This document shows positions 2,265 through 33,080 of a DNA stretch of 64,000 nt, one piece after another. Positions within the stretch are counted from its first letter, which is position 1, and each line of letters starts with the position of its first letter. The stretch spans positions 1,120,001 through 1,184,000 of the forward strand of contig CAXXVZ010000003.1 in the NCBI GenBank assembly GCA_963678065.2. Reading direction: 5' to 3'. The stretch comes from Treponemataceae bacterium. GTDB taxonomy: Bacteria; Spirochaetota; Spirochaetia; Treponematales; Rectinemataceae. The notes under the pieces are model-generated. The model ran no database searches. It saw only the letters and a list, made by a program, of their open reading frames with translations, and was not told where the DNA came from. Both the position numbers and the translations under genes were made by a program.

Positions 2265-2294
2265 TTGACCGCTGTTACTGGCCATAGATACAAT
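2265..2294 (+). promoter_or_regulatory. putative sigma70 promoter of the tryptophanase-family gene
   Basis: TTGACC-N18-TACAAT about 70 nt upstream of the ATG. Confidence 0.45.
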
Positions 2295-2366
2295 TCCCGA
2301 AACCTTCCGGTTCCGCGCGGCGCTCCGGCCGCCTCCGGTCGGCTTTACCCCAAAAAGAGAGGAATC

Positions 2367-3824: not shown

Positions 3825-3868
3825 ACGCTCCGCGCCTGAGGACGCAAGGCACAAGGCCCTCAGGCGCA

Positions 3869-4273
3869 TCAGGACAAGGCCGGCCCTCCGTCGTCGGGGA
3901 TGCGCGATTCCGCCGTGATGGCGATCCCTCCCCGCGACTTCTGGGCTATGGTCACCTTGACCCAGCGCGGCTTGCAGGCATCGAAAACATCCTTGGCTAT
4001 CCTGGCGGAGAGACTCTCGCAGAAGGAGCCTTCCTCCCTGAACGACCAGAGGTAGAGCTTGAGGCTCTTGCTTTCGATGCACAGCTTGCCGGGCTCGAAT
4101 TCTATCCGGACCGTCTCCCAGTCGGGCTGGCCGGTCACGGGGCAGAGGCTCGTGACTTCGTCGCAATCCAGGATCACTCTCTTCACATGCTCCGCCGCCG
4201 GGAAGGTCTCGAGTCTGCGGACCGGTTGGGAAATTTTCTTGCCGAGGAATTCGAAATTGTACTCTGTCATCAT
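3869..4273 (-). CDS. queF: NADPH-dependent 7-cyano-7-deazaguanine (preQ0) reductase, unimodular type
   Basis: TSLCPVTGQPD, the QueF motif ESKSLKLYL and C-terminal RGGI. Start ATG overlaps the yhhQ stop. Confidence 0.92.
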   Translation of the reverse strand: MMTEYNFEFLGKKISQPVRRLETFPAAEHVKRVILDCDEVTSLCPVTGQPDWETVRIEFEPGKLCIESKSLKLYLWSFREEGSFCESLSARIAKDVFDACKPRWVKVTIAQKSRGGIAITAESRIPDDGGPALS

Positions 4274-4959
4274 TGTGCTCCGATCCTGAAGGGATTGTAG
4301 GCCACACCGTTGTCGAAGACGTCGATGCCTTCGATGCGCTTGATGAAACCCACGACTTTGTACGTGACAGGCGTAAGGACGATTTCGTAGGAAACCTTGA
4401 ACAGATACTGGGCCGCCATCATCTGCAGAAGAACCGGGAAGGGCACATTCCCGAAAAAGCTCAGGCCGATGAAAAGAATGGTGTCGAGCCCCTGCCCGAC
4501 TATCGTCGAACCGATGGTGCGGACCCAGAGGTATCTGCCCTTCGTACGCTTTTTCAGGACCGAAAGCACCATGGAGTTGGAGAACTCTCCCGCCCAGTAG
4601 GCGACGAGAGAGGCCAGGACAATTCTCGGCGTCTGGCCGAGGACTGTCGCATACGCCGCCTGAGCCCCGAAAAACGCCGGATACGGAAGGGCGATGGCTA
4701 TCAGGAATATCGCCGACATGAAGACATTGGCCGCAAAGCCCATCCAGATCACAAAGCGCATCTTCCCGTATCCGTACACCTCGGTGAATACATCCCCGAG
4801 AATATACGTGACCGGAAAGAGAATGACCGCCGAGGGAAGAACCACGCCGAAGACGGTCATGAGCTTGCCCGCAATGATGTTCGAGATGACGAGACAGACC
4901 AGAAACAATGAAGACAGCGCGAGAAACACGAAAGAATACGAGCCGGTTTCCTTTTTCAT
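4270..4959 (-). CDS. yhhQ: queuosine precursor transporter (YhhQ/VUT family)
   Basis: Multi-TM protein with SNIIAGK, FPVTYILGDVFTEVYG, RIVLASLVAY and RTIGSTIVGQGLDT. Upstream of queF. Start could be the TTG 6 nt upstream. Confidence 0.9.
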   Translation of the reverse strand: MKKETGSYSFVFLALSSLFLVCLVISNIIAGKLMTVFGVVLPSAVILFPVTYILGDVFTEVYGYGKMRFVIWMGFAANVFMSAIFLIAIALPYPAFFGAQAAYATVLGQTPRIVLASLVAYWAGEFSNSMVLSVLKKRTKGRYLWVRTIGSTIVGQGLDTILFIGLSFFGNVPFPVLLQMMAAQYLFKVSYEIVLTPVTYKVVGFIKRIEGIDVFDNGVAYNPFRIGAQ

Positions 4960-4972
4960 AGGCAAGGAAGGA

Positions 4973-5007
4973 CCTCCTGTTTTGTTGTGGCGGGAGCCGC
5001 GACCGCC
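4973..5007 (-). ncRNA. preQ1-I riboswitch (type II, Thermoanaerobacter-like), translational
   Basis: Minus strand GGCGG-UCGCGGCUC-CCGCC-AC-AACAAAACAGGAGG. It has a 5-bp P1, a UCGC loop and an AACAAAAC tail running into the Shine-Dalgarno, directly upstream of yhhQ-queF. Confidence 0.88.
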
Positions 5008-5019
5008 GTGAATACCGAG

Positions 5020-5049
5020 ACTGTATAGCGAATGCGCCGGAAATGGCAA
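5020..5049 (-). promoter_or_regulatory. putative sigma70 promoter for riboswitch-yhhQ-queF
   Basis: Minus strand TTGCCA-N16-TATACA(GT) ends about 12-15 nt before the riboswitch. Confidence 0.5.
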
Positions 5050-5133
5050 CCTCTTTCCTGTTCTGCTGTTGACGTTTCGAAATTTGAATGTTCAAATGTT
5101 TCCGGCCATCGGAGAAAGGGGGAGCGAGAACGC

Positions 5134-9222: not shown

Positions 9223-10302
9223 ATGAGTCAGACCGAACGCATCTTCCACATCGACCGATCGATCAGGGAAGCCGGCGGCACCAGCATCCGCGATATCGCG
9301 AAACACTTCGAGATCTGTCCCCGGCAGGCGAAGCGCGACATCGAGTACATGCGCGACAGGCTGCGCGCTCCCATCGTCTGGTCTGTCGACCACCGACGAT
9401 ACGAGTACTCTTCCGACTGGGACTGCCTGCGCTCGGCCGACGAAAAATCCCTCTTCGCCCTCGCCTTTCTCTCGTCCATCCTCACCGAATACAGCTACGT
9501 TCCCGTCGTCTCAGACGATCTTCTCGCCCTTCTCAAGGAGAGGATAGCCGGTCGTTACTCCCGCATCGTGGACAAGGTCCGCTACGAATTGCCCGACATG
9601 GAATCGATCGACGGTGAAATCGCATACGCTCTGTGCGAGGCGCTCGCCGGCCCCTCGTGGCTCGACATCGACTACACCGACGCGAAAGGAGACTCGAGCG
9701 CGCGTTCTATCGTCCCTGTGCGGCTCGTCAACTACGCGGGAAAGTGGTACTGCGTCGCCCTCGACTCGAAGTCGGGCAAACTCAGGACCTTCTCCGTGGC
9801 GCGGATCGACGCGGCGGCAGCCAGGAATCCATCTCCGACTGCGAGTCCGCACGCCGGGAGCTCAGAAGGCGCGGCCGCCGGAACCCCAGCCGACCTCCCC
9901 TCCGACGAAGAGATAGACCGATTTCTCTCGTCCTCTTACGGAATCTTCAAGGGCGAGCCCATCGGGCGCGCAACCCTGCGCTTCTACAGAGGGGCCGCCC
10001 GCGCCGTGCGCGAGCAGGTCTGGCACCGCGACCAGATCATCACCCCAGTCTCCCCGGACCCATCCGCGCCCGCGGCGGGCGGACAGGAATCCTCCGACAC
10101 CCAAGATAACCGCGCCAGCGCACAGACGCTCGACTTGAGCCTCCCCGTCCACGACTGGACCGAGCTCTTAGGCCGCGCCCTCCGCTGCGGCGCCAACTGC
10201 GAAGTGATGGCCCCCGCGGAGTTCCGCACGCGCTGGGTCGAGGAGATCCGGCGCATGGCCTCTCTGGCGCGCGCCGACGTCGACGCCCCCGTGGCCGGAT
10301 GA
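9223..10302 (+). CDS. WYL-domain transcriptional regulator (HTH-WYL-WCX, PafBC/DriD-like)
   Basis: N-terminal wHTH (IAKHFEICPRQAKRDIEYMRDRL), WYL core (RSIVPVRLVNYAGKWYCVA...LRTFSVARI) and WCX-like C-terminus (WHRDQ...ELLGRALRCGANCEVMAPAEFR). Confidence 0.9.
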   Translation: MSQTERIFHIDRSIREAGGTSIRDIAKHFEICPRQAKRDIEYMRDRLRAPIVWSVDHRRYEYSSDWDCLRSADEKSLFALAFLSSILTEYSYVPVVSDDLLALLKERIAGRYSRIVDKVRYELPDMESIDGEIAYALCEALAGPSWLDIDYTDAKGDSSARSIVPVRLVNYAGKWYCVALDSKSGKLRTFSVARIDAAAARNPSPTASPHAGSSEGAAAGTPADLPSDEEIDRFLSSSYGIFKGEPIGRATLRFYRGAARAVREQVWHRDQIITPVSPDPSAPAAGGQESSDTQDNRASAQTLDLSLPVHDWTELLGRALRCGANCEVMAPAEFRTRWVEEIRRMASLARADVDAPVAG

Positions 10303-10359
10303 ATGAGTCGCAGGAAAACACAAGCTTCCGTACTTCAAAAACCTGTTTTTCTCTACATG

Positions 10360-10394
10360 AGGGACAACCTGTGTCCCTTTACGCGTCGTATGAT
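10360..10394 (+). promoter_or_regulatory. palindromic operator plus -10 box upstream of the HIRAN gene (candidate WYL-regulator site)
   Basis: AGGGACA-N5-TGTCCCT (10360-10378) followed by TATGAT (10389-10394); no canonical -35. Confidence 0.6.
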
Positions 10395-10420
10395 GGAGGC
10401 GAGAAGAGGAGGATAGGATC

Positions 10421-11590
10421 GTGCAGTCAAAAGCCGTCTATCTGGTCATGCTGTCCGAGGCGAATGTCGAAGTATTCACGGAGAGTCCCACGGGCTCTTT
10501 CGATCTGGCAGGCCTGTATTCCGGCCAGGGATCGATGAAGAAAGCCCGCGAGGCCGTTTCCAGTCTCACGGAGGCCAGTATCGAATCGGAGCTGCGCTAC
10601 CAGGACAGCTACGGGTCCCCGGTCATCCACGAGGCCGACACGTTCCGGCCCCGTGTTTACCGAACAGCCAGGGGCGACTCGGGCCCTCCGACCAGGGAGA
10701 TTGCGGCTTTCCTGTTCCGTTACCCGACCTGGCGGCTCGCCCAGCAGCGGGGCGACTTCGTCGATGCCGGAGCCGCAATCCAGCGGTCGGGGAAACTCAA
10801 GCCACTCAGACATCTCTTGCGCTATCTCGCCGGAGACGATCTCTTTCTCATCTTCGCCCTGTACTGGCTCTCGGAATTCGACAGGGACAAGATACCGTGG
10901 CTCGCGGAGCTTCTATCCGCAGGGGCCGTGACGCTCGGGGACGAGGTCGCTCCCGGCAACCCCATGGCAACCGGACTCACGGGACGGCAGGCCGGCACCC
11001 GCGCGACGAAGCCCGGTGCACTGAACCCCTACGCCGAACTCTTCGATTTCGCCCGATCCGGGATCCACTCAGGAGACGCGCAGGATTTCAGGAAGGAACT
11101 CGACCTCGCGCTCCGAGAGCACCTCATCGCGCGCCGCCGGGAACTCATCCTGCCAGTCGTCGGCGAAGGCCTGGGCCGCGCAACAGCAGAAATCCGCATC
11201 CGAGCCTCGGAGGCCCTCGCCGAAGGCAGGAACCGGGCCCTGACCGAAGGGCTCACCGGGGTCGATTCCCGCGTGCGCACCTGGCTCGAGAGCATCGAGT
11301 TCTCAGTCCAGCGAGAACCCTGGAACCGCGTCGACCCGAACGCCCTCTGTGTCCTCGCACGCTTTCCCGAAGACGGCCGCACCGCCCTCGCGGGCTACAT
11401 CCGCGCCGATGTTGCCGCCTGCCTCTCTCCCCTCGCCGACGAGGGAATCAGCTTCCGCGCAAGGCTCTTCCGCCTCGACGAGAAAGAGCTGTCCCTGGCC
11501 GTCGGGATTGTCGAGGACGGCGAAACGTGGGGTGGAACATCCGAACCCGGGAAAGGGACTAAGCCTGTGGCAATGCAAAAGAAAGACTGA
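10421..11590 (+). CDS. hypothetical protein with C-terminal HIRAN domain
   Basis: PVVGEG...VQREPWNRVDPNALCV...AGYIRADVAACLSPLADEG fits the HIRAN consensus (REPxNxxDxNA...GYI). The N-terminal ~240 aa are unrecognised. GTG start with AGGAGG RBS. Confidence 0.7.
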   Translation: MQSKAVYLVMLSEANVEVFTESPTGSFDLAGLYSGQGSMKKAREAVSSLTEASIESELRYQDSYGSPVIHEADTFRPRVYRTARGDSGPPTREIAAFLFRYPTWRLAQQRGDFVDAGAAIQRSGKLKPLRHLLRYLAGDDLFLIFALYWLSEFDRDKIPWLAELLSAGAVTLGDEVAPGNPMATGLTGRQAGTRATKPGALNPYAELFDFARSGIHSGDAQDFRKELDLALREHLIARRRELILPVVGEGLGRATAEIRIRASEALAEGRNRALTEGLTGVDSRVRTWLESIEFSVQREPWNRVDPNALCVLARFPEDGRTALAGYIRADVAACLSPLADEGISFRARLFRLDEKELSLAVGIVEDGETWGGTSEPGKGTKPVAMQKKD

Positions 11591-11623
11591 GGGCCCTGGG
11601 AATGGGATCTGGATTATGGCAAC

Positions 11624-11745
11624 AGCCGATGGCGCCGATGCCTCCACGGGAGGAGGCCAAGCGTGGTCTCACCCTTTTGCGCGAAGGGAATGCAGAGATC
11701 ACGTCTGGATATCGCGGGTTCGAATCCCTGCCGGCGCCGTCGGTT
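11624..11745 (+). ncRNA. tRNA-like structured RNA (non-canonical)
   Basis: 14-bp closing stem AGCCGATGGCGCCG/CGGCGCCGTCGGTT, hairpin GCCTCC/GGAGGC, long arm CGTGGTCTC/GAGATCACG with inner CCCTTT/GAAGGG, T-arm GGGTTCGAATCCC, then a T-rich tract. Confidence 0.6.
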
Positions 11746-11835
11746 TTTCTTCTTTGAGGGAAATATATGGGGATGAGATATGAACAAACCGATGTTTTCT
11801 CACTGATGGAAATACTCAATGTCCACGCATCGTGT

Positions 11836-11875
11836 ACATAATTTATGTTGCATTCTCGTTCAATGCTCGTATAAT
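11836..11875 (+). promoter_or_regulatory. putative cas operon promoter with adjacent palindrome
   Basis: ACATAA-T-TTATGT palindrome abutting TTGCAT-N16-TATAAT in an AT-rich region. Confidence 0.5.
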
Positions 11876-12048
11876 AATATACAAAAGGGGGTTGATAAGT
11901 GAAAAGAGGAGCATGGTGACGCCTCCTGCACACAAGTGCAAAGATATCGGATGGAAGGAACCTCACTTGTTCAATAACTTTCTTTCCGGCACAACAAAGA
12001 TCAAACCGGCCATCTGGAAACAAGCTGTAACATCAAGCGAGGAACGAA

Positions 12049-12248
12049 ATGGCCTATGAAAACAAGACACTAAGGGATTACTTCGAAGGGGTAGCAGAAC
12101 GTTGCGAGAGAACGTAGGCAAAATCGGCTGCACTGACTACGGCGAAATCCTTTGCCTCCTTCTCGATTTAGGGAAGCATAGCCTAAAATTTCAGAATTAT
12201 GTCCGCTCGATGATCGGACTTTCATATAAAAATATTCAAATCCTCTAG
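12049..12248 (+). pseudogene. cas3: decayed cas3 HD-domain N-terminal remnant
   Basis: MAYENKTLRDYFEGVAERCE / frameshift / NVGKIGCTDYGEILCLLLDLGKHSLKFQNYVRSMIGL resembles the Cas3 HD start (LxxHLxxVA...GLLHDLGK...FQxY) with both His residues lost. Confidence 0.65.
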
Positions 12249-12272: not shown

Positions 12273-12944
12273 GTGTATTCATATCAGGTGCAAATGGAGA
12301 TTTCCGGAAATACAGCTATGTGGACGCGGCCGGATACAGGCGATTGTCCTGTTACCTATCCGGTTCCGACTTACTCGGCAGTAAAGGGGATATTCGAATC
12401 AATTTTATGGGGGCCGGCAGTAAAAATTGTCCCGGAAATAGTCGAAATATGTGCTCCACTGCAATATCACACGTATCACACAAATTATGGCGGACCTTTA
12501 CGAGAGGTTGGTGTGATTTCAAGCGGTGGAAGCTACCAATTATTGGCGACGGTCTTGGTTGATGTCTGTTACCGCCTGTATGCAAAAATAGTTCCCATCG
12601 GTGGGAATAAAAAAGAACTTATAACTCAAAAATCTCTATCTTGGGACAAGAAGACAACATCACCTGGGCATGCTTATCAGGATATTTTCAACCGACGATT
12701 GTCAAAAGGTCAATGCTTTTCGATTCCTTTTTTGGGATGGAAGGAATTTGGGCCGAATTACTTTGGCCCTTTCAGGGCTAATACAAAAGTACAGACTGAT
12801 TTTGAAGTTGTGATCCCTTCAATGTTGAGGGAAGTGTTTTCCGATGGATACAATTCCAAGGTTGCATACTCATTCGATCAAAATATTTCTATTTCAAATG
12901 GTACGTTACTGTTCACTGCCAAGGAGACAAATCATGCTGAATGA
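12273..12944 (+). CDS. cas5: CRISPR-associated Cas5 (type I-C-like, divergent)
   Basis: EISGNTAMWTRP...TYPVPTYSAVKGIFESILW...LVDVCY...GQCFSIPFLGWKEF; GTG start after GGAGG. Confidence 0.88.
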   Translation: MYSYQVQMEISGNTAMWTRPDTGDCPVTYPVPTYSAVKGIFESILWGPAVKIVPEIVEICAPLQYHTYHTNYGGPLREVGVISSGGSYQLLATVLVDVCYRLYAKIVPIGGNKKELITQKSLSWDKKTTSPGHAYQDIFNRRLSKGQCFSIPFLGWKEFGPNYFGPFRANTKVQTDFEVVIPSMLREVFSDGYNSKVAYSFDQNISISNGTLLFTAKETNHAE

Positions 12945-15039
12945 ATTGTGCCAATTGGCGGATGCCTTGGAGAATGCCGGGATAACGCCCAAGGAATGGT
13001 GTTCGCAATTAAAACAACTTCCAAAAATCACCTTCAAGGAACCTTGTTATCGGATATGGATCTCGGCTGACAACACAATATCGTCAATTGACGAAATGCC
13101 TAATAATCTGGCTGCGGTTTTGCGTAAATGGGAACCAAGCAACGGCAATTCCTTTCCGGCATTCAATATCCAACCATTATATCGCATCACAAGTAAGGAA
13201 CAGAAAGTCAAGTTGAAAGAGTGGAGAGGCGGCAAGACCTCTATTGCATATCAAGAACTTCGATCGTGGTGCACAAATGCGACAGACAATTGGGATCGGA
13301 AAATCCAAAAAAAACTAAAAATCTGCTTGAATGAAATTCCACTAAAGCTAAATCAGAAAATGAATAGTGTTGAAAATCATGAACAAGATTCAATTCAAGA
13401 ACTCATTCGTCGGGCAAGTCGGTATACCGGATTCGATATGGATTTCCCGATAGTTGTTGATGCGAAAAATTTCCGGCAATCAATGGAGAGTTTCATTTGG
13501 AAGTCTCTTTCTCAAGGAGAGAGAGTTAATACTCTTCTATCCATTCTTTTTTGCGAGGGTGATTCAACAAAAAGGCCAGAAGAGGACCAGGGTAGAATAT
13601 CTGTTTTTCTAGATATAGATGACTGGCAATGCTTTGGGTACCCGGTTGCTCATGAGAAAAGCCTCGACTCGATAAATGATAGACTAAGAAAAAATGATCG
13701 AAAAATACCAAATTCTACCTTGAAAGACGCTTTTGGGCTTCCATTCTTCAATGTGGATGACAAATTGCCAAGCGTAAAACTGCCGATTATCGCCGATGTC
13801 AAACTACGCTCTATGTTCAGTGCACACCACTGTCAGTACCGCTATGGAAAGATTGAAGCGGATTCTTTTCCGATTAGCATGGAAAACCGCACCAAGGCCA
13901 AAGGAGCTCTTGAATGGCTGTGTGATCCAAGTCGTGAGGGTCAGACCTGGGGGCGAGCCGATAACAAAGAACTTATCTTCGCCTATCCCTCGGCCTTGCA
14001 GGAAATCATTCCAATGGCGTCTATTTTCATTGCTCGCAATATTGATGGCACGGCTGAGGCTCGCTTTTCAGATGCGGCTAAAGATGTCATAGCTGCTTTG
14101 ACAAAATTAACTACCAATCTTCGTTCATTGGAGTTAAGAGTTTTTGCTCTAAAAAAAATGGATAAAGCTCGAACGAAAGTGGCTTTCTATCGCAACTACT
14201 CTGCTCAACGTTTGGTGGATGCTGCTAATGATTGGCAAGTCGGCTGTACAAATCTGCCAGAGCTGCGTTTGAAGGTATGGACAGATCAGAAAGGTGAATG
14301 GAAAACAACAGAGCCAACAATGCCCTATCCACTGCAACTTGGCTCTTGCCTGAACCGTATCTGGAAGCTTGATGGCAGTTCCGAGTGTGAAACAAAATCC
14401 GTTCCCTCTAGTCAAGGCATTGAATTGCTTCTAGATGAACAGGCCTATCGATTTATTCCGCATCTACTTGCTGTCCTATTGCAAAACAGCAAGGGATTGC
14501 TTCTATCGCTTGGCAATGAGCAATCCAAGGGAACACCGGCATCGATAAAGGGCAAAGATTCTCAGAAGTTGTTGATCCCATCCTTACTGGGATTATTGCT
14601 CCATAAACTCGGTATCCATAAGGAGGCCTATATGACCAACACTCCGTTCCTGGTTGGCCGGATTCTGAAACTATCCGATGAACTACATGCATTCTATTGC
14701 CAGGAAGTACGCAACAACAATCTACCGCCTCAACTTGTCGGTAATTCCCTGATGGTTGCGGCACTTGAAAGCCCAACCCAAGCTTTGGCTCAACTCAGTA
14801 TGCGACTGAATCCATATCTTGCCTGGGCGAAGCAATTCCGTACCAAAAACGAGACAACCAGTTGGAAGGCCGACTGGCTGTTGAAGTTATTTGAGGAAAC
14901 CACCAGCTCACTTACTGATGCCGCACTACCCTACAGGTGCACCGATACCGAAAAAGCCCAAATGTTTATCGGTTACCTGTCATCACTGACAAGGGAACAA
15001 GACGTGAGTACACAAGTCATTGCTTCCAAAAGCAATTAG
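12934..15039 (+). CDS. cas8c: Cascade large subunit (Cas8c-like, divergent)
   Basis: About 700 aa between cas5 and cas7. Starts MLNELCQLA; C-terminal helical region (FLVGRIL...LNPYLAWA...FIGYL). Confidence 0.7.
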   Translation: MLNELCQLADALENAGITPKEWCSQLKQLPKITFKEPCYRIWISADNTISSIDEMPNNLAAVLRKWEPSNGNSFPAFNIQPLYRITSKEQKVKLKEWRGGKTSIAYQELRSWCTNATDNWDRKIQKKLKICLNEIPLKLNQKMNSVENHEQDSIQELIRRASRYTGFDMDFPIVVDAKNFRQSMESFIWKSLSQGERVNTLLSILFCEGDSTKRPEEDQGRISVFLDIDDWQCFGYPVAHEKSLDSINDRLRKNDRKIPNSTLKDAFGLPFFNVDDKLPSVKLPIIADVKLRSMFSAHHCQYRYGKIEADSFPISMENRTKAKGALEWLCDPSREGQTWGRADNKELIFAYPSALQEIIPMASIFIARNIDGTAEARFSDAAKDVIAALTKLTTNLRSLELRVFALKKMDKARTKVAFYRNYSAQRLVDAANDWQVGCTNLPELRLKVWTDQKGEWKTTEPTMPYPLQLGSCLNRIWKLDGSSECETKSVPSSQGIELLLDEQAYRFIPHLLAVLLQNSKGLLLSLGNEQSKGTPASIKGKDSQKLLIPSLLGLLLHKLGIHKEAYMTNTPFLVGRILKLSDELHAFYCQEVRNNNLPPQLVGNSLMVAALESPTQALAQLSMRLNPYLAWAKQFRTKNETTSWKADWLLKLFEETTSSLTDAALPYRCTDTEKAQMFIGYLSSLTREQDVSTQVIASKSN
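14632..15039 (+). CDS. cas11: putative Cas11 small subunit, internally translated from cas8
   Basis: In-frame ATG at 14632 with AGGAGG (14621-14626) 5 nt upstream, giving 135 aa (MTNTPFLVGRIL...). Confidence 0.7.
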   Translation: MTNTPFLVGRILKLSDELHAFYCQEVRNNNLPPQLVGNSLMVAALESPTQALAQLSMRLNPYLAWAKQFRTKNETTSWKADWLLKLFEETTSSLTDAALPYRCTDTEKAQMFIGYLSSLTREQDVSTQVIASKSN

Positions 15040-15061
15040 CACTTTTATCAAGGAGCTTAAA

Positions 15062-15955
15062 ATGAGTACGGAAATCAAACGCGCTACCGGTCTCTTGATC
15101 ATCGAAGTTGTAAATTCCAACCCAAACGGGGATCCCGATCGCGAAAGCGATCCACGCCAGCGCCCGAATGGTTTGGGAGAAATTTCTCCAGTCTCGTTCA
15201 AGCGGAAGCTGCGGGATTTGGTTGAAGATATATCGGGAACTGTTTTTCCAGAGGTATCCAGAAAACTTTCACTGGAAGCAACCCGCTGTAAAATACTGGA
15301 ATCACGGGGACGCGATAGGGTGACAATTAGCAAAGAGATGGGAAAAGATATCACAAAATTCGATCAGTCCGAATTCCTCAATAGTGAGTTTGTTCGGAAG
15401 TATTGGGACGCACGTTTATTTGGTAACACTTTTCTTGAAGAGGGAGGAAATAAGGGATATATAAAAACTGGCGTCGCTCAATTTGAGATAGGGCTCTCAA
15501 TTGCACCAATCCAGGTAATCAGACATACCAATACCAACAAAGCCGGAGTAGAAAAGGGGAAAGATCAAGGAATGGCACCATTGGCATACCGTATAGTGGA
15601 ACATGGTGTATATTTCATGCCGTTTTTTATTAATCCCAACTTCGCTCACAAATCCGGTTGTACTGCTGAAGATGTTGAACTACTAAAAACACTTATCCCT
15701 TATGCCTACGATCAAACTCGCTCGGCGATTCGTCCTGATGTCCGGATTCGACATGCATGGTACATGGAACATAAAAATGCATTGGGTAGTTGTCCAGATT
15801 ATCTTCTGCTGGAAGCGCTAATACCAAAACGCCGTGGATCAGACCCCATGGCTTCATCAACCTCTTGGAATGATTATGATGACGAGTCGGCTCGATTACC
15901 TGCAGATTTGTTGGGAAGAATCGAAAACTGTGTTGATTTGATGGAGAACGTGTAA
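15062..15955 (+). CDS. cas7: Cas7 (Csd2/Cas7c-like backbone subunit)
   Basis: NSNPNGDPD...PR, SFKRKLRD, YWDARLFG, TGVAQF, AYRIVEHGVY. Confidence 0.9.
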   Translation: MSTEIKRATGLLIIEVVNSNPNGDPDRESDPRQRPNGLGEISPVSFKRKLRDLVEDISGTVFPEVSRKLSLEATRCKILESRGRDRVTISKEMGKDITKFDQSEFLNSEFVRKYWDARLFGNTFLEEGGNKGYIKTGVAQFEIGLSIAPIQVIRHTNTNKAGVEKGKDQGMAPLAYRIVEHGVYFMPFFINPNFAHKSGCTAEDVELLKTLIPYAYDQTRSAIRPDVRIRHAWYMEHKNALGSCPDYLLLEALIPKRRGSDPMASSTSWNDYDDESARLPADLLGRIENCVDLMENV

Positions 15956-18165
15956 TGTTCTACGCCCACAGCCCGGATGCAAAAAGAGGAATAATAGGTC
16001 AAAGCTATATCAAGCATATCCGTGGGGTTGTGGCAAACGCAAACTCATCCGCTTGCGCTGTCGCCAAGTATGCAGCAAAAGATGGTTCTTTGCTTCAAAC
16101 CGTAGTAGCGCAGGCGGCTGAGTTTCACGATTTAGGAAAACTTGACGACGCGAATCAAGAGGTGTTATCTGGCGCAAAGAAAGCACAGAGTCTACCAGTC
16201 CAACATACCGATGCCGGAACCGCGGCATTATTGAGCACGTGCAATCCTTCCCCGATATCAGCGGCATTGATCCGATCACACCATATAGGTTTTCCTGATT
16301 TTATTGCGGAGTCAAATCGGGGAGAAAGATTCTTACGAGACGACGCTGTATCTGAACACGTGAATCAGACCTTGGAATCGCTTCGTCAACGACATAGTTC
16401 GCTTCGTAATGATTTTGTACAAAATGGAATACCGGAAAATCCTTTGCTCAATCTCGCACTGTTCTTGCGGCTGTCACTATCATGCCTGGTAGATGCAGAC
16501 CACGCTGATACATGCATCCATTACGGTGATTATCCATCAATAGAGAACATCGTCGAGCTGAAACCGACAGAAAGACTTCAGATGCTTGATCGCTATGTTG
16601 CAGGGCTCGTCAATACAGTAGATGAACGCTCACGGCTTAGGGCGGAAATGTATCAAACTTGCCGGAATGCAAATACCGACCGGAGAATCGCTTCATGTGA
16701 CAGTCCGGTTGGATCAGGAAAAACAACCGCCATTATGGCTCATCTGCTTGCACAAGCACAGCAAAGGGGATTGCGCAAAATCTTTGTTGTTTTACCGTTT
16801 ACAAATATCATAACACAATCCGTTGAAGTTTATAGAAAGGCATTGCTTTTACCTGGCGAAAATCCCGAAGATGTTGTGGGAGAATTGCATCACCAAGCTG
16901 ATTTTCAAAGCATAGAAAGCCGACATCTTTCAGCTCTATGGAAGGCACCCATTATCGTTACAACAGCAGTGACATTCTTCGAGACTCTGGCGTCAAATAC
17001 CCCAAGCGCTCTTCGCAGGCTCCACAATCTTCCAGGTAGTGCAATTTTTGTAGACGAGTCACATGCAGCTTTGCCGGCAAAACTGCTTCCAGTTGCCTGG
17101 GACTGGATAAAAGCGTATAGCGAAGAATGGGGATGCTACTGGGTCCTGGCATCAGGGTCACTCAACCGATTTTGGCAAATCCCAGAGTTTGATAAGCATC
17201 CTCCAATAGTTCCGGAAATTGTCGATTCTCAACTTCGATCTCGACTTGCGTCATATGAAAAAGGCAGGGTGATTTATCGCTACAATGAAAAACGTCAGAC
17301 CGCGGAAGAACTGGTAAGTTGGATAGCTGGCATGCCAGGACCACGTATAGTGGTTTTTAATACTGTCCAAAGCGCTGCAGTTGTCGCATCTCTGTATGCA
17401 AAAAAGTATGGCAGAGATCGTGTAGAACATTTGTCGACAGCCTTGTCGCCTTCAGATCGAGCGATTACGTTAAATCGAATAAAAATACGCTTGGACAATC
17501 CTCAGAATGAAGTGGAAGGAAACTGGACCCTCATCGCGACTTCATGCGTTGAAGCGGGGGTAGATATATCCTTCAGGACTGGACTCCGGGAACTGGGAGC
17601 GCTGGTTTCGCTGTTGCAAATCTCTGGCAGAGTCAATCGACATGGGCAGGAGACCTGCGCAGAAGTATGGACGTTCCGACTCGCAGAAATCGATCCATTG
17701 AAGATCCATCCGGGAATAAAGGAAGCTGTCACAGTATTACAAGGTTTTTTCGAGTCAAGTCAAACGATTGCCCCCGAACTTTGCACAAAAGCTTTGGAAC
17801 AGGAAATCAGGATGAGTGGCGTTTCTTCGGTTTTTGAAAAGTTGCGAATCGCAGAAAAACAGAATCGCTTCCCTTTGGTTGAAGAAAAATTCAAAGTCAT
17901 TGATACCGATACTCGAACTGTTGTTGTTGACTCTGGATTGATTGGACGAATCTCAGGACACAAATCAGTTGATTGGAAAGAAATTCAAACAAAGTCAGTT
18001 CAAATATGGAAATATCAAATTGACGCGTTGCGTGTACCTGAACTCATAGGAAAATCAGGGCTATATGGGTGGAATCTGGCCTATGATAATTTTATCGGCT
18101 ATATGGCCGGTGTTTTAGCTGTGAAAAATTTTTCAGCAGGAACAGGTGAAGGCACAATAATATGA
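15955..18165 (+). CDS. cas3: Cas3 HD nuclease-helicase
   Basis: FYAHS, HIRGV, FHDLGK, SHH, LVDADH, SPVGSGKT, DESH, EAGVDI, SGRVNRHG. Confidence 0.95.
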   Translation: MFYAHSPDAKRGIIGQSYIKHIRGVVANANSSACAVAKYAAKDGSLLQTVVAQAAEFHDLGKLDDANQEVLSGAKKAQSLPVQHTDAGTAALLSTCNPSPISAALIRSHHIGFPDFIAESNRGERFLRDDAVSEHVNQTLESLRQRHSSLRNDFVQNGIPENPLLNLALFLRLSLSCLVDADHADTCIHYGDYPSIENIVELKPTERLQMLDRYVAGLVNTVDERSRLRAEMYQTCRNANTDRRIASCDSPVGSGKTTAIMAHLLAQAQQRGLRKIFVVLPFTNIITQSVEVYRKALLLPGENPEDVVGELHHQADFQSIESRHLSALWKAPIIVTTAVTFFETLASNTPSALRRLHNLPGSAIFVDESHAALPAKLLPVAWDWIKAYSEEWGCYWVLASGSLNRFWQIPEFDKHPPIVPEIVDSQLRSRLASYEKGRVIYRYNEKRQTAEELVSWIAGMPGPRIVVFNTVQSAAVVASLYAKKYGRDRVEHLSTALSPSDRAITLNRIKIRLDNPQNEVEGNWTLIATSCVEAGVDISFRTGLRELGALVSLLQISGRVNRHGQETCAEVWTFRLAEIDPLKIHPGIKEAVTVLQGFFESSQTIAPELCTKALEQEIRMSGVSSVFEKLRIAEKQNRFPLVEEKFKVIDTDTRTVVVDSGLIGRISGHKSVDWKEIQTKSVQIWKYQIDALRVPELIGKSGLYGWNLAYDNFIGYMAGVLAVKNFSAGTGEGTII

Positions 18166-18216
18166 GCAACACAATAACAAAGGCACATCCTTCTATTCCA
18201 GACAATGAGGTAATCG

Positions 18217-18879
18217 ATGAAGAGCTATTCGGAGGATGACCTCATCCCTATTTCAGCGTTATCGCATGTAGTCTACTGCGATAGACGCTTCGCGCTCATC
18301 CACATCGAACAGCTCTGGGAGGAGAATCGCTATACAGCGGAGGGGCAGGTGCTGCACGAGCGGGTGGACACGGAGGGGCACGAGTCGCGGAGGCTTTTTC
18401 GGCAGGAGTTCGGGATGGCGATACGCTCGCTCGAATATGGGCTGATCGGAAAGACTGATCTCGTCGAGCTGTACCTGAGACCGGAGGGCGGTGTGGCCGA
18501 GGCCCTGCCTGTGGAGTTCAAGCGAGGAAAGGACAAGGAAGATGATTGCGACAGAGTGCAGCTGTACGCTCAGGCGCTTTGTCTTGCGGAGATGCTCGGA
18601 ACGGAACCGGTTCGCGGTGCTTTTTACTACTTGGGCGCGCACAGGAGGACATGGGTGGAGTTTTCGGCTGGATTGAGGTCGACGACGCTGGCCGCGATCG
18701 ATCGGGCGAGAACTCTGTTGAACGAGGGGAAAACGCCGAGCGCGAAATATGAGAGGGCGAAATGCGAGCGCTGCTCGCTTGTCGAACTGTGTATGCCGCG
18801 CTCGATCGGCAATGGAGGAAAGCGGGTGGCTCCTTACATCGAGTCCGAACTCGCGTCGATGCGCGCGGAGTGTCCCTGA
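18217..18879 (+). CDS. cas4: Cas4 exonuclease
   Basis: YCDRR, GKTDLVE, PVEFKRG, QLYAQALCL, CERCSLVELC (Fe-S cysteines). Confidence 0.95.
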   Translation: MKSYSEDDLIPISALSHVVYCDRRFALIHIEQLWEENRYTAEGQVLHERVDTEGHESRRLFRQEFGMAIRSLEYGLIGKTDLVELYLRPEGGVAEALPVEFKRGKDKEDDCDRVQLYAQALCLAEMLGTEPVRGAFYYLGAHRRTWVEFSAGLRSTTLAAIDRARTLLNEGKTPSAKYERAKCERCSLVELCMPRSIGNGGKRVAPYIESELASMRAECP

Positions 18880-19910
18880 TGCGCAAACTTCTCAACACAC
18901 TCTACGTTAGTTCGCAAGGCTCCTATCTCCGCAAGGAAGGCGAAACTGTCGTCGTCGAGCGAGAACAGAAGAAGGTGCTTCAGCTCCCGATACACAGCAT
19001 CGGAGGTATCGTCTGCTTCGGAAATGTCCTCTGTTCACCCTTTTTGCTCGGGTTCTGCGCGGAACGGGACATCGCCGTTTCCTTTCTGACGGAGTACGGA
19101 AGGTTTCTCGCCTCGGTCCGCGGGCCGGTATCGGGCAATGTGCTGCTGCGTCGCCAGCAATACCGCATGGCGGACGACGAGGTTGCGACCCGCGCTATTG
19201 CAGCGAACATCGTCTCAGGAAAGCTCGCAAATTGCCGGGTTGTCATGAACCGGGCGCTCCGTGATCACGCGGGGAAGATCGACTCTGACGCGATCAAGGG
19301 CGCATCGTCGACCATAAACAGGCTCATCGACGAACTTCCACGTGCGGCCGACGGGAACGCCGTACGCGGATTCGAGGGCATGGCCGCAGCCGAATACTTC
19401 GGCATCTTCGAGAACCTCATTGTCGACCAGAAGGAGGATTTCCAGTTTCACGAGCGGAGCAGGAGACCTCCACTCGACCCGGTGAACGCGCTGCTTTCCT
19501 TCGTGTACACACTGATAGCCCACGATGTCCGATCCGCGCTCGAGACGGTCGGACTCGATCCGGCCGTGGGATTTCTGCACAGGGACAGACCAGGAAGGCC
19601 TGGCCTCGCTCTCGACCTCATGGAAGAATTCAGACCGGTGATCGCGGACAGACTTGTGCTCTCGCTCATCAACCGGCGTCAGGTCAATGCGAGGGGCTTC
19701 AAGCGGGCGGAGAACGGGGCCGTCGTCATGAGCGACGACACCAGGAAAACCGTTCTCGTCGAATATCAGACGAGGAAGCAAGACGAGATACTGCATCCTT
19801 ATATAGAAGAAAAAATCCCCATGGGTCTCGCTTTTTTTGTCCAGGCGAATCTTATGGCGCGTTTCATTCGGGGCGATATCGACGGGTATCCACCCTTCTT
19901 CTGGAGGTAG
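18879..19910 (+). CDS. cas1: Cas1 (type I-C)
   Basis: MRKLLNTLYV, GNVLLRRQQY, RGFEG, RRPPLDPVNALLSF, LALDLMEEFR, YPPFFWR. Confidence 0.97.
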   Translation: MRKLLNTLYVSSQGSYLRKEGETVVVEREQKKVLQLPIHSIGGIVCFGNVLCSPFLLGFCAERDIAVSFLTEYGRFLASVRGPVSGNVLLRRQQYRMADDEVATRAIAANIVSGKLANCRVVMNRALRDHAGKIDSDAIKGASSTINRLIDELPRAADGNAVRGFEGMAAAEYFGIFENLIVDQKEDFQFHERSRRPPLDPVNALLSFVYTLIAHDVRSALETVGLDPAVGFLHRDRPGRPGLALDLMEEFRPVIADRLVLSLINRRQVNARGFKRAENGAVVMSDDTRKTVLVEYQTRKQDEILHPYIEEKIPMGLAFFVQANLMARFIRGDIDGYPPFFWR

Positions 19911-19911
19911 C

Positions 19912-20202
19912 ATGCTGGTGCTTGTCAGTTACGATGTCGCCATCTCGACCCCCGGAGGGAAACGACGACTGCGTCGAGTTGCCAAAACTTGCGTCAATTT
20001 TGGACAGCGCGTGCAGTTCAGCGTGTTCGAGTGCGTCGTGGAACCTGCACAGTGGGTTTCGCTCAAGGCGCAGCTCGAGGCGATCATCGATATCGGGTCG
20101 GACAGTCTGCGCTACTACTATCTCGGATCAAATTGGAAGAGGAAGGTCGAGCACGTCGGGGCCAAGCCGGGTACCGATATCGATGAACCCCTCATCGTCT
20201 GA
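19912..20202 (+). CDS. cas2: Cas2
   Basis: MLVLVSYDV...RRLRRVAKTCVNFGQRVQFSVFEC...DSLRYY. Confidence 0.97.
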   Translation: MLVLVSYDVAISTPGGKRRLRRVAKTCVNFGQRVQFSVFECVVEPAQWVSLKAQLEAIIDIGSDSLRYYYLGSNWKRKVEHVGAKPGTDIDEPLIV

Positions 20203-20492: not shown

Positions 20493-29836
<9,344 letters not shown>

Positions 29837-29866
29837 TGGACTTGCCCCGACCGAATGGACAGGTAG

Positions 29867-30712
29867 TTAAGCCACTCTCGTCGCCTGTGATACCGGCGGT
29901 TTCATCGCATTGTGCGAATGCCGCCTGATCCGATTGTAGTAGACCTCGATGTACTCGAAAAGATCATGACGGACCCTTTCTCTGGAATATGTACCATTCA
30001 GAGTCTCTAATTCCCGTTTCAACGTTTTGAAAAAGGATTCCGCACAGGCATTATCCCAGCAATTGCCCTTTCGGCTCATGCTTTGAACAATTCCTTTCCT
30101 CTCCGCCAGTAGTGACCTCAATGCGGTGGAACAATACTGGACGCCCCGATCAGAGTGGAAGAGAAGTCCTGGCTTATACCCATATCGGATAACGGCCATG
30201 ACAAAAGCATCCACCACAATCTGGGAGGTCATGTCATCGCGGGTCGACCAGCCGACGACGTGACGGGTGCAGAGGTCGATAACGACACACAGATACAGCC
30301 AGCCCTCGGTTGTCGGGCAATACGTGATGTCAGAAACCCAGACGAGACCCGGCAGCGGTACGTCAAACTGTCGGTCAAGCAGGTTTTCCGCTACCGGTTC
30401 TCCATGATTCGAGTCTGTCGTGACAACGTATTTCTTCTTCGGCAGGCTTCCCAGATCATTCTCCCGCATGAGTCTGGCCACCCGTTTACGCGACACTCCA
30501 TAGCCTGTATCGCGCAATTCTTCGTGGATGCGCGGACTCCCGTATCGCCGGTGATGCTGTTTCTGGATGGCTTTGATCTTCTTGACCAATTCGGCATCCA
30601 GCAGTGCGTGACGGCTTGGTTTTCTCGATTTCCACGCATAGTACCCCGAAACGGAGACTTCCAGATATGTCGCCATCTTCCGTATCGACCACTGCCTCCG
30701 GTGGTCGACCAT
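29867..30712 (-). CDS. IS3-family transposase OrfB (DDE integrase core), disconnected from OrfA
   Basis: YGSPRI, WVSDITY, FHSDRGVQY, SMSRKGNCWDNACAESFF, YYNRIRRH. Confidence 0.93.
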   Translation of the reverse strand: MVDHRRQWSIRKMATYLEVSVSGYYAWKSRKPSRHALLDAELVKKIKAIQKQHHRRYGSPRIHEELRDTGYGVSRKRVARLMRENDLGSLPKKKYVVTTDSNHGEPVAENLLDRQFDVPLPGLVWVSDITYCPTTEGWLYLCVVIDLCTRHVVGWSTRDDMTSQIVVDAFVMAVIRYGYKPGLLFHSDRGVQYCSTALRSLLAERKGIVQSMSRKGNCWDNACAESFFKTLKRELETLNGTYSRERVRHDLFEYIEVYYNRIRRHSHNAMKPPVSQATRVA

Positions 30713-30787
30713 GAACTGGTAGACTCGGGCTAATTCCCCCTTCGGGGTACCGAGAAGATGGCGACGGCTTTTTTTCTATGTTTCCTG

Positions 30788-31891
30788 TCAACCTCCGGCT
30801 CCGAGAATTGCCAATCCTGACCTCTTGAGCTTGAGAGCAAATATCATGTCATCCGTGTACCGGTAGCGTTCCCCTCGTGTGAGCAAAATATAGACCATCT
30901 CGAGCAGCTTCCGGGCGGTCGCGACGACCGCGATAGAAGGCGCTTTCCCTCTGGAGATCATTGCCTCATAGTGGGACTTGAGCGGGTTTGAGCATTTACT
31001 GCGAATAAGTCCCCAGGCGCTCTGGACAAGCAGGCCCCGAAGATGCGCATTGCCTCGCTTCGTGATTGAGCCCTTGCGTTCAAGTTCTCCCGATTCGTGA
31101 AGCCGTGGCGACAACCCAACATAGTTGACCAACTGGGCTGGTCCGCTAAAGCGGCGCATGTCTCCCGCGTATGCCAGGATGGCCATCGTCGTCTTGATGC
31201 CAAAGCCAGGGAGCGACATGAGGATGTGCGCAGACTCCCCGCCCTTCATCACCGAAGCCCCGATCTCTTCGACCAACCCGGCGAGGATCTGCTCATATTC
31301 CGAGATCATGTGATGGAGGTTAATGGCCTCCGTCTTGCTGAAGCCGGCAAGTTCGGTTTCGATGAGCCGTTCCCTCGTGGCTGCCTTCTTAAGCTGGGCC
31401 TTGGTATGGTCAGGAATGCCACATCGGAGAAACACCGCATGAAGACGGTTTATAAGGCGAGTTCTATCCCTGCGAAAGCGGTCTTCATGGGACGAAAGTG
31501 CCCGACGATCCATCTCTTCATCCGAGGGCACTGGCACTGTCGGCAATTCGTCAGCATTGAACTTTTGCACAAGTCGCGCGAGCTTGAGCGCGTCCTCACG
31601 GTCCGACTTCTTGAGCGACTTATGGATCACCGCCAGGTCAGCCGCGTTCAGGACAAGGACCTGTATGTCGGGGTGCTCCATGAGTTCCTTCGCTATCTGG
31701 AATGAGGAGGTACCAGCTTCCATCGCGATGGTGTCGCCTGGTCGAACCCTTTCCGCAAGGCTGCGGCGGCCTCGAATATCGAGCTTGCCATTCCACCGCT
31801 GGATTGATTCGGTCTTTCCATCGATGGCAACCGCCTCGTAGGTCCTCTTCGAAAGGTCGATGCCAATAAAACGCCCTGTTTCCTTCCCCAT
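30788..31891 (-). CDS. IS110-family recombinase/transposase (DEDD RuvC plus Tnp20 domain)
   Basis: FIGIDLSK, MEAG, KSDREDA, LPGFG, YVGLSPRLHESG, GSITKRGNAHLR; GGAGG RBS before ATG 31891. Confidence 0.93.
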   Translation of the reverse strand: MGKETGRFIGIDLSKRTYEAVAIDGKTESIQRWNGKLDIRGRRSLAERVRPGDTIAMEAGTSSFQIAKELMEHPDIQVLVLNAADLAVIHKSLKKSDREDALKLARLVQKFNADELPTVPVPSDEEMDRRALSSHEDRFRRDRTRLINRLHAVFLRCGIPDHTKAQLKKAATRERLIETELAGFSKTEAINLHHMISEYEQILAGLVEEIGASVMKGGESAHILMSLPGFGIKTTMAILAYAGDMRRFSGPAQLVNYVGLSPRLHESGELERKGSITKRGNAHLRGLLVQSAWGLIRSKCSNPLKSHYEAMISRGKAPSIAVVATARKLLEMVYILLTRGERYRYTDDMIFALKLKRSGLAILGAGG

Positions 31892-31933
31892 GCGCAGCCT
31901 CCCGGGAAAAAGATCGGAGCCGGAAGTCTTTGA

Positions 31934-32120
31934 GCGATACAACGTGGTACTACATTCTTCTATTCGCAGTGGCGTTGCCGCAGCATCGTCCTGCACCCTG
32001 ATTTTCGACGACCGGCCTGGGCATAATCTTTTAGCCGGGGTCATACCCCACAAAGCGCGTACTGCCTGCCGCCGGCTCCCGGGTTCCGTCGAACCCAGCC
32101 TACCACGATCGTTGTACCGC
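31934..32120 (-). ncRNA. predicted IS110 bridge RNA
   Basis: Noncoding left end closed by GCGGTACAAC/GTTGTATCGC and GTGGTA/TACCAC pairing. Internal loops contain CTAAAA and GCTTT (target-like) and ATAGAA (donor-end-like). Confidence 0.6.
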
Positions 32121-32138
32121 CAGGGGAAACATATCATC

Positions 32139-32393
32139 TTTTAGTATTGCATTCGCCTCACGAAGTTCATCATTTTCCTTTTTCAGCCTGGTCATTTCCT
32201 GATCACGTGCATTCCCTTGTCCGGTAAATGCTTGTTTGTGTATTTCCTGACTCTCCCGTCGCCACCGGCACAATAGTCCAGGATCAATTCCCAAGTCTTT
32301 GGCCACGTTCCGGGCACTCCTGCCTGACCGTTCCAAGTGTTCAAGTGCTTCTTTCTTGAACTCTGCCGCGTACTTCCTTCTTTTGTCTTCCAT
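32139..32393 (-). pseudogene. IS3-family OrfA (HTH), interrupted near its end by IS110
   Basis: MEDKRRKYAAEFKKEA...VAKDLGI...LKKENDELREANAILK. The remainder (KAVAIFSVPRRGN*) lies at about 30730-30775. Confidence 0.88.
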
Positions 32394-32457
32394 ACCCTCT
32401 CCTCTCCTTATTCTCGGAGAGGCTTAACTCATGCTCCACTGGTTTGGGGTAGGTCCA

Positions 32458-33080
32458 CCCCACACGGGCGCGTGGATTGAAACATGTTAATCATCCGAAC
32501 GCGGGAGCGGAGGTAGGGTCGCGCCCCACACGGGCGCGTGGATTGAAACGTTGAAATTATGGACGATCTCAGTCCATACTCCCGTCGCGCCCCACACGGG
32601 CGCGTGGATTGAAACAAAGAGGACACAGGGAAGACCCATCCGGCATTTGTGTCGCGCCTCACGCGGGCGCGTGGATTGAAACCCCATCAGGTCAACGGCT
32701 TCGTGACTGCGCAGGTGGTCGCGCCCCACGCGGGCGCGTGGATTGAAACGGAGGAACATCATACCTGTCCATTGTTGCCGCTCATCGCGCCCCACGCGGG
32801 CGCGTGGATTGAAACCTAATAAGGTGATCTGTCCGCATCATCTTCCATGTCGCGCCCCACGCGGGCGCGTGGATTGAAACATTTCTCCTCTTTCTAAGTA
32901 CATAGGCGTCATTGGTCGCGCCCCTCGCGGGCGCGCGGATTGAAACCGCCTGTGTCCGACCTCGTGACTTCCGACCTCGCCGTCGCGCCCCTCGCGGGCG
33001 TGTGGATTGAAACGTCCTCGGAATAAAGATAGTCATACCGGCTGGAAGGTCGCGCCCCTCGCGGGCGCGTGGATTGAAAC
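32458..33080 (+). CRISPR. CRISPR array, trailer part (9 spacers, degenerating repeats)
   Basis: Resumes with the rest of the split repeat. Terminal repeats carry substitutions (e.g. GTCGCGCCCCTCGCGGG...), which supports plus orientation. Confidence 0.97.

Follow-up and report, generated by a model that had tools for sequence, protein, structure and literature searches.

What is a tRNA-shaped RNA doing between a WYL regulator and a CRISPR-Cas locus? The question is raised by a 64,000-nt stretch of DNA (the window) from a Treponemataceae bacterium (GCA_963678065.2, contig CAXXVZ010000003.1, positions 1,120,001 to 1,184,000 of the forward strand), a spirochaete with a 5.27-Mb genome labelled G000 here; its named relatives are Spirochaetes, Treponema and Rectinema assemblies. 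A WYL regulator gene, a palindrome with a -10 box, the gene of a 389-aa protein with a C-terminal HIRAN domain and, 33 nt further on, the gene of a tRNA-shaped non-coding RNA (ncRNA; 11626..11743, plus strand) were found there by Pfam, fold and sequence analysis, the genes being co-oriented ahead of a type I-C cas block, as a first-pass annotation had listed them. The same annotation had the protein and the RNA acting together, and this part was not borne out: the RNA is present at 3 of the 23 HIRAN loci with downstream DNA (G000, G799 and L011), is kept in genome G797 without a HIRAN gene, and occurs beside phage MuF-PBECR genes without WYL or HIRAN. Since these relatives of the RNA lie tail to tail with predicted MuF RNase toxins, we tentatively regard it as a captured antidote and not as the partner of the HIRAN protein.

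The segment 11626-11743 folds with -67.2 kcal/mol (z -4.98), and none of 200 shuffled sequences folded as well. The fold consists of a closing helix of 12-13 bp, a D-like arm (11640-11657), a variable middle arm (11661-11704), a 5-nt variable loop and a bulged T-like arm (11714-11731), and it has neither a canonical anticodon loop nor a CCA end. The same four-helix fold was predicted from an unfitted MAFFT alignment, with 17 of 30 pairs changed on both sides; in the model-fitted alignment, which leans towards the structure, 19 of 31 pairs covary, a value reached by none of 500 shuffles and compared with 3-7 in slid controls. The stems vary, while the D-like GG, the 5-nt variable loop, the T-like loop and the bulge are kept and the middle arm is free in length and sequence. 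A covariance model made from two relatives gave the window copy 81 bits. At the 3' end of the RNA the GC content changes from about 0.65 to 0.43, and a T5 tract (11744..11748, plus strand), a likely terminator, stands right behind the closing helix. Contigs of three other studies (X5, X7 and X11) match the window up to 11748 and continue with unlike sequence, X11 into a secreted-protein gene; thus the conserved unit ends at the T-tract. All three contigs carry the variant G11666A, which improves a pair. A phrog_1848 protein of unknown function with a signal-peptide-like start (L085:5331-6017, L011:5657-6316) follows the RNA in G797, G799, L011 and X11, and has no match in G000.

Certain traits of a tRNA gene are present in the RNA, namely the T-loop, the D-loop GG and the variable-loop bases. 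Instead of the 7+5 (or other 12-bp) acceptor/T branch, however, it has the 12-13-bp closing helix and a 5-bp bulged arm, and the family has no conserved 7-nt anticodon loop. ARAGORN made no call at its default settings; when the threshold was relaxed it did call the RNA, but by inventing an intron. An ordinary tRNA or an integration-site remnant was rejected, as G000 already has 50 tRNA genes and the 3' end of the RNA occurs there only once. A miniature inverted-repeat transposable element or a repeat of the repetitive extragenic palindromic type was ruled out by the single copy in G000 and at most two copies in any genome searched. The bacterial Y RNA YrlA has tRNA-like cloverleaf features with a permuted arm order, whereas the arms of the present RNA run D then T, unpermuted. 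Rfam gave no match in the window, none over the RNA at E<=10 and none in 18 related loci, the YrlA, C4 and DUF3800 motifs included. With tRNAs and allo-tRNAs (Mukai 2017, PMC5389517; here and below, papers are cited for the portion of their text that was available) the RNA shares the cloverleaf, the T-like loop, the D-like GG and a class I variable loop, and it differs from them in the closing helix, the bulged T-arm and the lack of a conserved anticodon loop and of CCA.

The RNA model cross-matches tRNAs, the highest score in genomes being 34 bits, and it gives 48 bits to an odd tRNA-like gene of a phage. This gene (L149:2444-2537, model R2) has a 13-bp acceptor helix, a canonical D-arm and a middle loop of 6 nt; its T-arm is bulged in the same way, and CCA is lacking. 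Matches of model R2 at or below 36 bits were dropped as tRNAs (48 of the 50 checked), the rest being a real divergent member (L091) and a hit in an aminoacyl-tRNA-synthetase-like open reading frame (ORF; L125). In viral scans a 19-nt pattern matched nine times (one family member, L148, five tRNAs or tRNA-like genes and three unrelated sequences), a 5' pattern matched twice, both times inside a primase ORF, and a 22-nt pattern and a single PBECR domain gave no matches. The INPHARED phages had T-arm matches only and no PBECR match. A long 3' pattern was found in G000 only among 401 phylum genomes; it is too strict, having missed the copies in genome G354. No RNA-bearing entry was found among the sequencing runs listed, which says nothing on expression. 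Judged by these alignments and searches, the RNA is an uncatalogued ncRNA family and an element separate from the WYL-HIRAN cassette; the family was not found in print, subscription journals being mostly outside the coverage of this and the other literature searches.

The RNA occurs in 6 of 69 family genomes, three of which have no HIRAN match. Since no more than 27-60 candidates were scored in each genome and a copy in G868 was missed, the RNA counts are lower bounds. Ten copies are clear: four behind a WYL operator, five linked to MuF genes and one, in G922, linked to neither. Seven of the ten have no HIRAN gene beside them. In G797 the WYL gene, the operator, the RNA, the secreted-protein gene and a cas5-8-7-3 block like that of the window are all in place, with a deletion of the HIRAN gene. 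Compensatory changes preserve the fold in the WYL-linked copies, although G000 gave no MuF or PBECR match.

Four copies stand alone (one each in G010 and G802, two in G801). In these the closing helix begins a few bases past the end of a sigma-70-like promoter, and the RNA adjoins the stop codon of one and the same MuF C-terminal domain, which is encoded on the other strand and is whole in G010 and decayed in the others. A fifth MuF-linked copy, at 89 bits and forming an intact pair, was found in an IMG/VR phage, and the promoter is aligned in all five. In G010 the domain forms the C-terminal end of a MuF protein whose gene belongs to a Mu-like terminase-portal-MuF module, and the module at L087 comprises DUF1804, terminase, Portal_Mu, Phage_Mu_F and the PBECR fold. 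The fold of the MuF tip domain is PBECR (Atlas structure row PBECR3, TM 0.71/0.75), with the helix His and the terminal Thr/Ser of the published signature present (Iyer 2017, PMC5512222). PBECR domains are common in phage head proteins and are predicted to be virion-delivered RNases which may attack mRNA or CRISPR RNA (crRNA; PMC5512222); in the available portions of the PBECR papers found, no target or inhibitor is named. MuF genes were matched in 21 of 191 genomes of the order, and G000 gave neither a MuF nor a PBECR match.

In order to compare the downstream regions, 16 complete MuF genes with downstream DNA were kept, and partial, contig-edge or near-duplicate ones were left out (L160-163, L171, L173, L178, L180, L182, L185 and L187). 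All ten PBECR-type genes have, on the opposite strand, a promoter-like site and an RNA whose fold covers the stop codon (z -1.55 to -8.45, at or below -2 in eight); seven of the tips were assigned to this class by eye from the alignment, and Pfam gave weak matches for three only. The four control MuF genes were without such RNA (z -0.91 to +1.1). Nine of the ten PBECR-type loci have no same-strand ORF within 120 nt downstream, and in both peptidase-tipped MuF genes a small ORF of 50-59 aa overlaps at the stop. Immunity to polymorphic toxins has been described as residing in small proteins, and small overlapping ORFs, present at 89% of toxin genes, are taken to be the immunity genes (Jamet 2017, PMC5576092). 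From the company that the RNA keeps in these genomes, it very probably originates at MuF loci.

RNA antitoxins of nucleases are known, and in type III toxin-antitoxin systems tandem RNA repeats lie upstream of the toxin and are co-transcribed with it. The present family resembles these systems (ToxIN, AbiF with its ncRNA), and also the DUF3800, drum and skipping-rope RNAs, in that a structured RNA is tied to a predicted nuclease gene. It differs in being a single cloverleaf on the opposite strand at the toxin stop, without tandem repeats and without an Rfam match, and in that the toxin is a BECR-fold virion protein. The relatives of the locus share with the MuF polymorphic toxins (Jamet 2017, PMC5576092; Iyer 2017, PMC5512222) the terminase-portal-MuF module and the C-terminal BECR-fold domain with His and Thr/Ser; the difference is that a convergent ncRNA gene and not a small protein gene stands behind the toxin, and that the window has no MuF gene. 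No mention of an RNA partner of MuF toxins was found in the available portions of these two papers, and the 2026 BECR survey (10.64898/2026.08.28.747851), to the extent available, mentions no ncRNA. Literature searches for MuF with an RNA antitoxin and for a structured RNA with Phage_Mu_F found no such description. The supplements of Fremin 2023, in the part available, contain three candidates with Mu_F, and in two rows Mu_F lies downstream of the RNA, which is another geometry. Motifs with 3' terminators tied to one protein family, in either orientation, have been described (Weinberg 2017, PMC5737381).

The explanation that we favour, tentatively, is that the RNA is an immunity factor which would bind and block the predicted PBECR RNase of the MuF protein of Mu-like phages, and which was captured as an orphan under WYL control. 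In the lysogen the prophage RNA would be made constitutively from its own promoter, at the position usual for the immunity genes of MuF toxins, and its tRNA-elbow shape would occupy the nuclease; whether the RNA inhibits PBECR is, on sequence grounds, close to an even call. In a spirochaete lineage one copy would then have come to lie behind the WYL operator, so that damage or infection would induce it along with the HIRAN protein. The host copy, whose own promoter is lost and whose genome lacks a cognate toxin, would serve as an orphan antidote, inducible against an incoming MuF RNase, and it is possible, if somewhat doubtful, that the host makes such protective use of it. In its widest form the proposal would be that Mu-like phages neutralise their MuF RNase tips by convergent tRNA-shaped RNA antitoxins diverging with the toxin, and that spirochaetes captured one of these under an infection-sensing WYL switch beside CRISPR-Cas, shielding host RNAs and possibly crRNA; taken as a whole this is rather unlikely.

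A number of observations weigh against the captured immunity factor. The RNA score tracks the toxin (90, 89, 43, 24, 19, 18 and 14 bits at 100, 50, 42, 21, 23, 17 and 16% toxin-domain identity to L087); this counts in favour of the reading, but plain linkage would give the same trend, the loci being related and not independent. The nuclease activity of PBECR is itself a prediction only, the class of seven tips was called by eye, and L159, a control gene with a MuF_C tip and the His kept, has no RNA. Two CdiA_C-tipped MuF genes (L183 and L184; G056 and G821) have a strong convergent promoter and hairpins with no evident immunity ORF, and therefore the arrangement is not PBECR-specific. The G922 copy (78 bits) has neither WYL nor MuF in the 9 kb fetched, and neither was present in the DNA fetched around the two G354 copies, which are divergent tandem members (L091:1501-1589 and 1939-2029); their closing helix is short, their terminator separate, and small unknown ORFs run towards them. 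The middle arm of the window copy is 30 nt longer than those of its relatives, and the variant T11740G, found in two of the three other studies, breaks a closing-helix pair unless the partner is changed on another contig. None of the 139 CRISPR spacers matches the fetched loci, and the cas block has a promoter-like site of its own, so that read-through WYL control of cas is not needed. Finally, the complementarity of the prophage RNA and the late transcript would permit a role in cis alone.

The main rival, unlikely in our estimate, is built on this last point. The RNA would be, in the prophage, an antisense or convergent unit damping the leaky muF 3' end and later genes, and in the cassette it would be reused between the HIRAN gene and its downstream neighbour, as a strong terminator, an attenuator or a 3' stabiliser. 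The T-tract behind the closing helix, the ability of the 3' strand to form a local terminator hairpin, and the ribosome-binding site and secreted-protein gene directly after the RNA in G799, G797, L011 and X11 agree with such a role. However, the conservation of the loop and junction bases (the D-like GG, the 5-nt variable loop, the T-like loop and the bulge) against varying stems exceeds the needs of a terminator or antisense RNA; moreover, the G354 copies have their separate terminator behind them and the stand-alone copies their own promoter. It is improbable that the RNA is instead a phage tRNA mimic, serving as substrate, cofactor or virion cargo of PBECR or as a decoy for host tRNA-binding proteins, with the host copy a general decoy against tRNA-attacking nucleases. 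This would fit the real tRNAs which are the only background matches of the RNA model, the bulged T-arm common to some phage tRNAs, the allo-tRNAs reported near toxin-antitoxin loci (PMC5389517) and the description of phage Mu's own PBECR as inactive and probably RNA-binding (PMC5512222), but the RNA holds the position of immunity genes, its fold diverges with the toxin clade and there is no conserved anticodon.

The reading of the first-pass annotation, in which a single ribonucleoprotein of HIRAN protein and RNA responds to Cas3 degradation products, appears quite improbable. The two are co-oriented and closely spaced in the window, their order is the same in G799 and L011, cas genes are present at 9 of 25 HIRAN loci, and the HIRAN fold aligns weakly with SmpB (Z 4.1-4.2, within background). 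The rarity of the RNA at HIRAN loci, its survival of the HIRAN deletion in G797 and the seven clear copies without a HIRAN neighbour speak against it, and the link to Cas3 in particular is weak, the cassette also preceding BREX-like, type I restriction-modification (RM), McrBC and HipA genes and cas being absent from the fetched DNA at 16 of the 25 loci. A functionless passenger left by a prophage remnant is the least probable of all, and very much so. Three of the five MuF-linked copies lie by decayed genes, the window copy has no promoter of its own and one variant breaks a pair; nevertheless, compensatory changes have occurred among WYL-linked copies of different genera with flanks far less conserved, and the conservation in the three other studies ends exactly at the T-tract. 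The captured immunity factor remains the reading that we tentatively prefer.

The regulator gene (9223..10302, plus strand) codes for a 359-aa protein of the order putative helix-turn-helix (HTH), WYL and WCX. The WYL (E 1.7e-13) and WCX (E 7.4e-9) domains are above the Pfam cut-offs and the PADLOC WYL match has E 1.8e-23; the N-terminal HTH_28 match (E 0.048) is below the cut-off. Orthologues 53-63% identical adjoin HIRAN homologues, and the regulator itself is a further member of the known WYL-WCX regulators. The predicted WYL site is the palindromic operator GGGACA-N5-TGTCCC (10361..10377), which overlaps the -35 position. The -10 box TATGAT (10389..10394, plus strand) starts 13 nt after the TGTC, and TAnnnT stands at equal spacing in homologues. 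This geometry is found at only four sites on both strands of the 5.27-Mb genome. The other GACA-N5-TGTC-N12-14-TAnnnT sites are C3:1979793, C3:1299033 and C3:929250; G000 has three WYL genes, and the site at C3:1979793 adjoins the second of them and points to a DJ-1/PfpI gene.

Twenty-five distinct HIRAN-family loci were kept after removal of same-genome duplicates, near-identical contigs and one HIRAN-only match (L042). The WYL gene was in the fetched DNA at 18 of them; two of the seven without it in view are on short contigs. The strict GACA-N5-TGTC was found at 14 loci and a palindrome with a -10 box at a 12-13-nt gap at 15. Besides the nine loci with cas genes, other defence genes are neighbours at five (BREX-like PglZ/BrxA at two, type I RM, McrBC and HipA at one each). 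The co-occurrence that the first-pass annotation proposed to look for among homologues was seen for WYL, palindrome and defence genes and not for the RNA. By this comparison of loci, the WYL gene, the operator and the HIRAN gene are a conserved cassette of spirochaete defence loci, and since the three travel together and sit among defence genes, an inducible defence-linked unit is likely; of the damage- or infection-inducible unit proposed earlier, these parts stand and the RNA drops out. No description of a HIRAN and WYL cassette was found in the literature covered. In Rectinema-type genomes (L009, L014-L019, L063, L064) the HIRAN-family gene is shortened to 160 aa by internal deletions, the operator and the place before cas3 being kept, and the WYL-less homologues L053-L055 (G565, G526, G679) are preceded by a palindrome of the inverted type (TGTCA-N5-TGACA or close to it).

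Several WYL regulators offer a comparison, again in the portions of text available. DdaA of Moraxellaceae recognises CGWCA-N5-TGWCG as an activator of repair, RM and cas genes (PMC12392091), the palindrome of mycobacterial SiwR lies between the -35 and -10 of the adjacent operon (PMC10693628), and DriD of Caulobacter and CapW are sensors of single-stranded DNA (ssDNA). DdaA, SiwR and DriD share with the window regulator the order of the WYL and WCX domains and a palindromic operator beside the target promoter, and DdaA also the N5 spacing of the motif and the control of cas and RM genes (PMC12392091). They differ in that the window holds a local mobile cassette with a dedicated HIRAN gene, and the DdaA site lies about 50 bp upstream of the start site, whereas the window site overlaps the -35. 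BrxR and CapW, WYL repressors of defence islands, are similar in that one regulator cassette precedes differing defence systems, BREX-like loci included; a HIRAN partner gene or ncRNA for them was not found in the literature available. By analogy, the WYL protein quite probably binds the palindrome and induces the transcript. A WYL dimer would bind GACA-N5-TGTC, sense ssDNA from damage or infection, as inferred from DriD, DdaA, SiwR and CapW, and switch on transcription, which would start from the -10 box, pass through the HIRAN gene and stop at the T-tract that follows the RNA.

The product of the HIRAN gene (10421..11590, plus strand) is a member of a small protein family: 7 proteins are close to it, and 19 clusters match at E<=1e-30. 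The family was found in 18 of the 401 genomes of the class and in 7 of the 69 genomes of the taxonomic family. The HIRAN domain was detected by Pfam (E 8.4e-6) and by a profile match to HLTF (E 3.5e-6). The protein has no NCBIfam, PADLOC or PHROG family, and the Atlas gave HIRAN clusters only, below 0.9. An AlphaFold model from 37 sequences is confident over the whole protein (predicted local distance difference test score, pLDDT, 89.9) and consists of an N-terminal alpha/beta domain (1-88), a helical domain and the C-terminal HIRAN domain (about 237-366) with a two-helix insert. Residues 237-366 of the model align with lp_0118 (3k2y; Z 10.7, root-mean-square deviation (rmsd) 2.7, 98 aligned) and HLTF (4xzg; Z 9.2, rmsd 2.9, 95 aligned). 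The prediction of the N-terminal fold, which the first-pass annotation had suggested, was less informative: residues 1-88 reach only Z 5, no structural match of the N-terminal region exceeded this in the search with the whole-protein model, by which the helical middle was barely covered, and no invariant catalytic residue stands out there.

The sole invariant columns among the 37 sequences are Asn302 and Asp305, which align to the NPYD of HLTF. In HLTF, Asp94 reads the 3'-OH, and Tyr72 and Tyr93 pinch the bases (PMC5773155); the position of Tyr93 is Val304 in the window protein and variable across the family. Compared with the HIRAN domains of HLTF, Rad5 and Lactobacillus lp_0118, the fold and the Asn/Asp pair are alike, and the Val in place of Tyr93, the two-helix insert, the fused N-terminal region without a clear match and the lack of a helicase or kinase are different. 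The likeliest role suggested by the model is a 3'-end-binding accessory without catalysis of its own. Its conserved Asn/Asp pocket would bind 3'-OH nucleic-acid ends, the protein being an independent accessory to the defence system that happens to follow, and the cas block would be an exchangeable cargo behind the cassette.

In the window, the RNA precedes the cas block as the first-pass annotation stated, although not directly: about 520 nt of low-GC DNA separate it from cas5. This DNA contains the promoter-like site ahead of the cas block (TTG..., 16 nt, TATAAT; 11848..11875, plus strand), whose -35 matches at 3 of 6 positions and is below the promoter-scan threshold, and weak hints only (E 0.03-0.06) of a decayed cas3 start at about 11920-12110. 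The type I-C block (12273..20202, plus strand) lies outside the conserved cassette and comprises cas5, cas8c, cas7 and cas3, assigned by Pfam and PADLOC, and three ORFs which, from their translations, we take to be cas4, cas1 and cas2. The order is unusual for type I-C, cas3 being behind cas7 (12273-18165), and is the same in G797, where cas5, cas7 and cas3 are 45-52% identical to those of the window. The CRISPR array (20493..32880, plus strand) has 144 repeat matches, from which 139 spacers were extracted. The spacer starting at 26485 matches the host assembly outside the array at 34 of 34 positions (C5:1110621-1110654) and that starting at 29594 at 33 of 34 (C3:1814423-1814456); these targets may be prophage or island DNA. 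The array is interrupted by an ORF (29867-30712) which is presumably an IS3-family transposase, and several spacers near it occur repeatedly. Upstream of the locus, the genes at 2265-5095 are, as we judge from their translations, a tryptophanase/tyrosine phenol-lyase, a queuosine-precursor transporter and QueF.

Apart from the immunity reading, two things are defined by the locus: an uncatalogued family of ncRNA, and a WYL-HIRAN cassette, not yet characterised, which precedes type I-C CRISPR, BREX-like, RM and McrBC loci across spirochaete families. If the immunity reading is true, an RNA immunity factor for a virion toxin would extend the known RNA antitoxins of nucleases, and the target and inhibitor of PBECR would become directly testable. 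The orphan host copy under WYL control would then be the RNA counterpart of acquired immunity genes.

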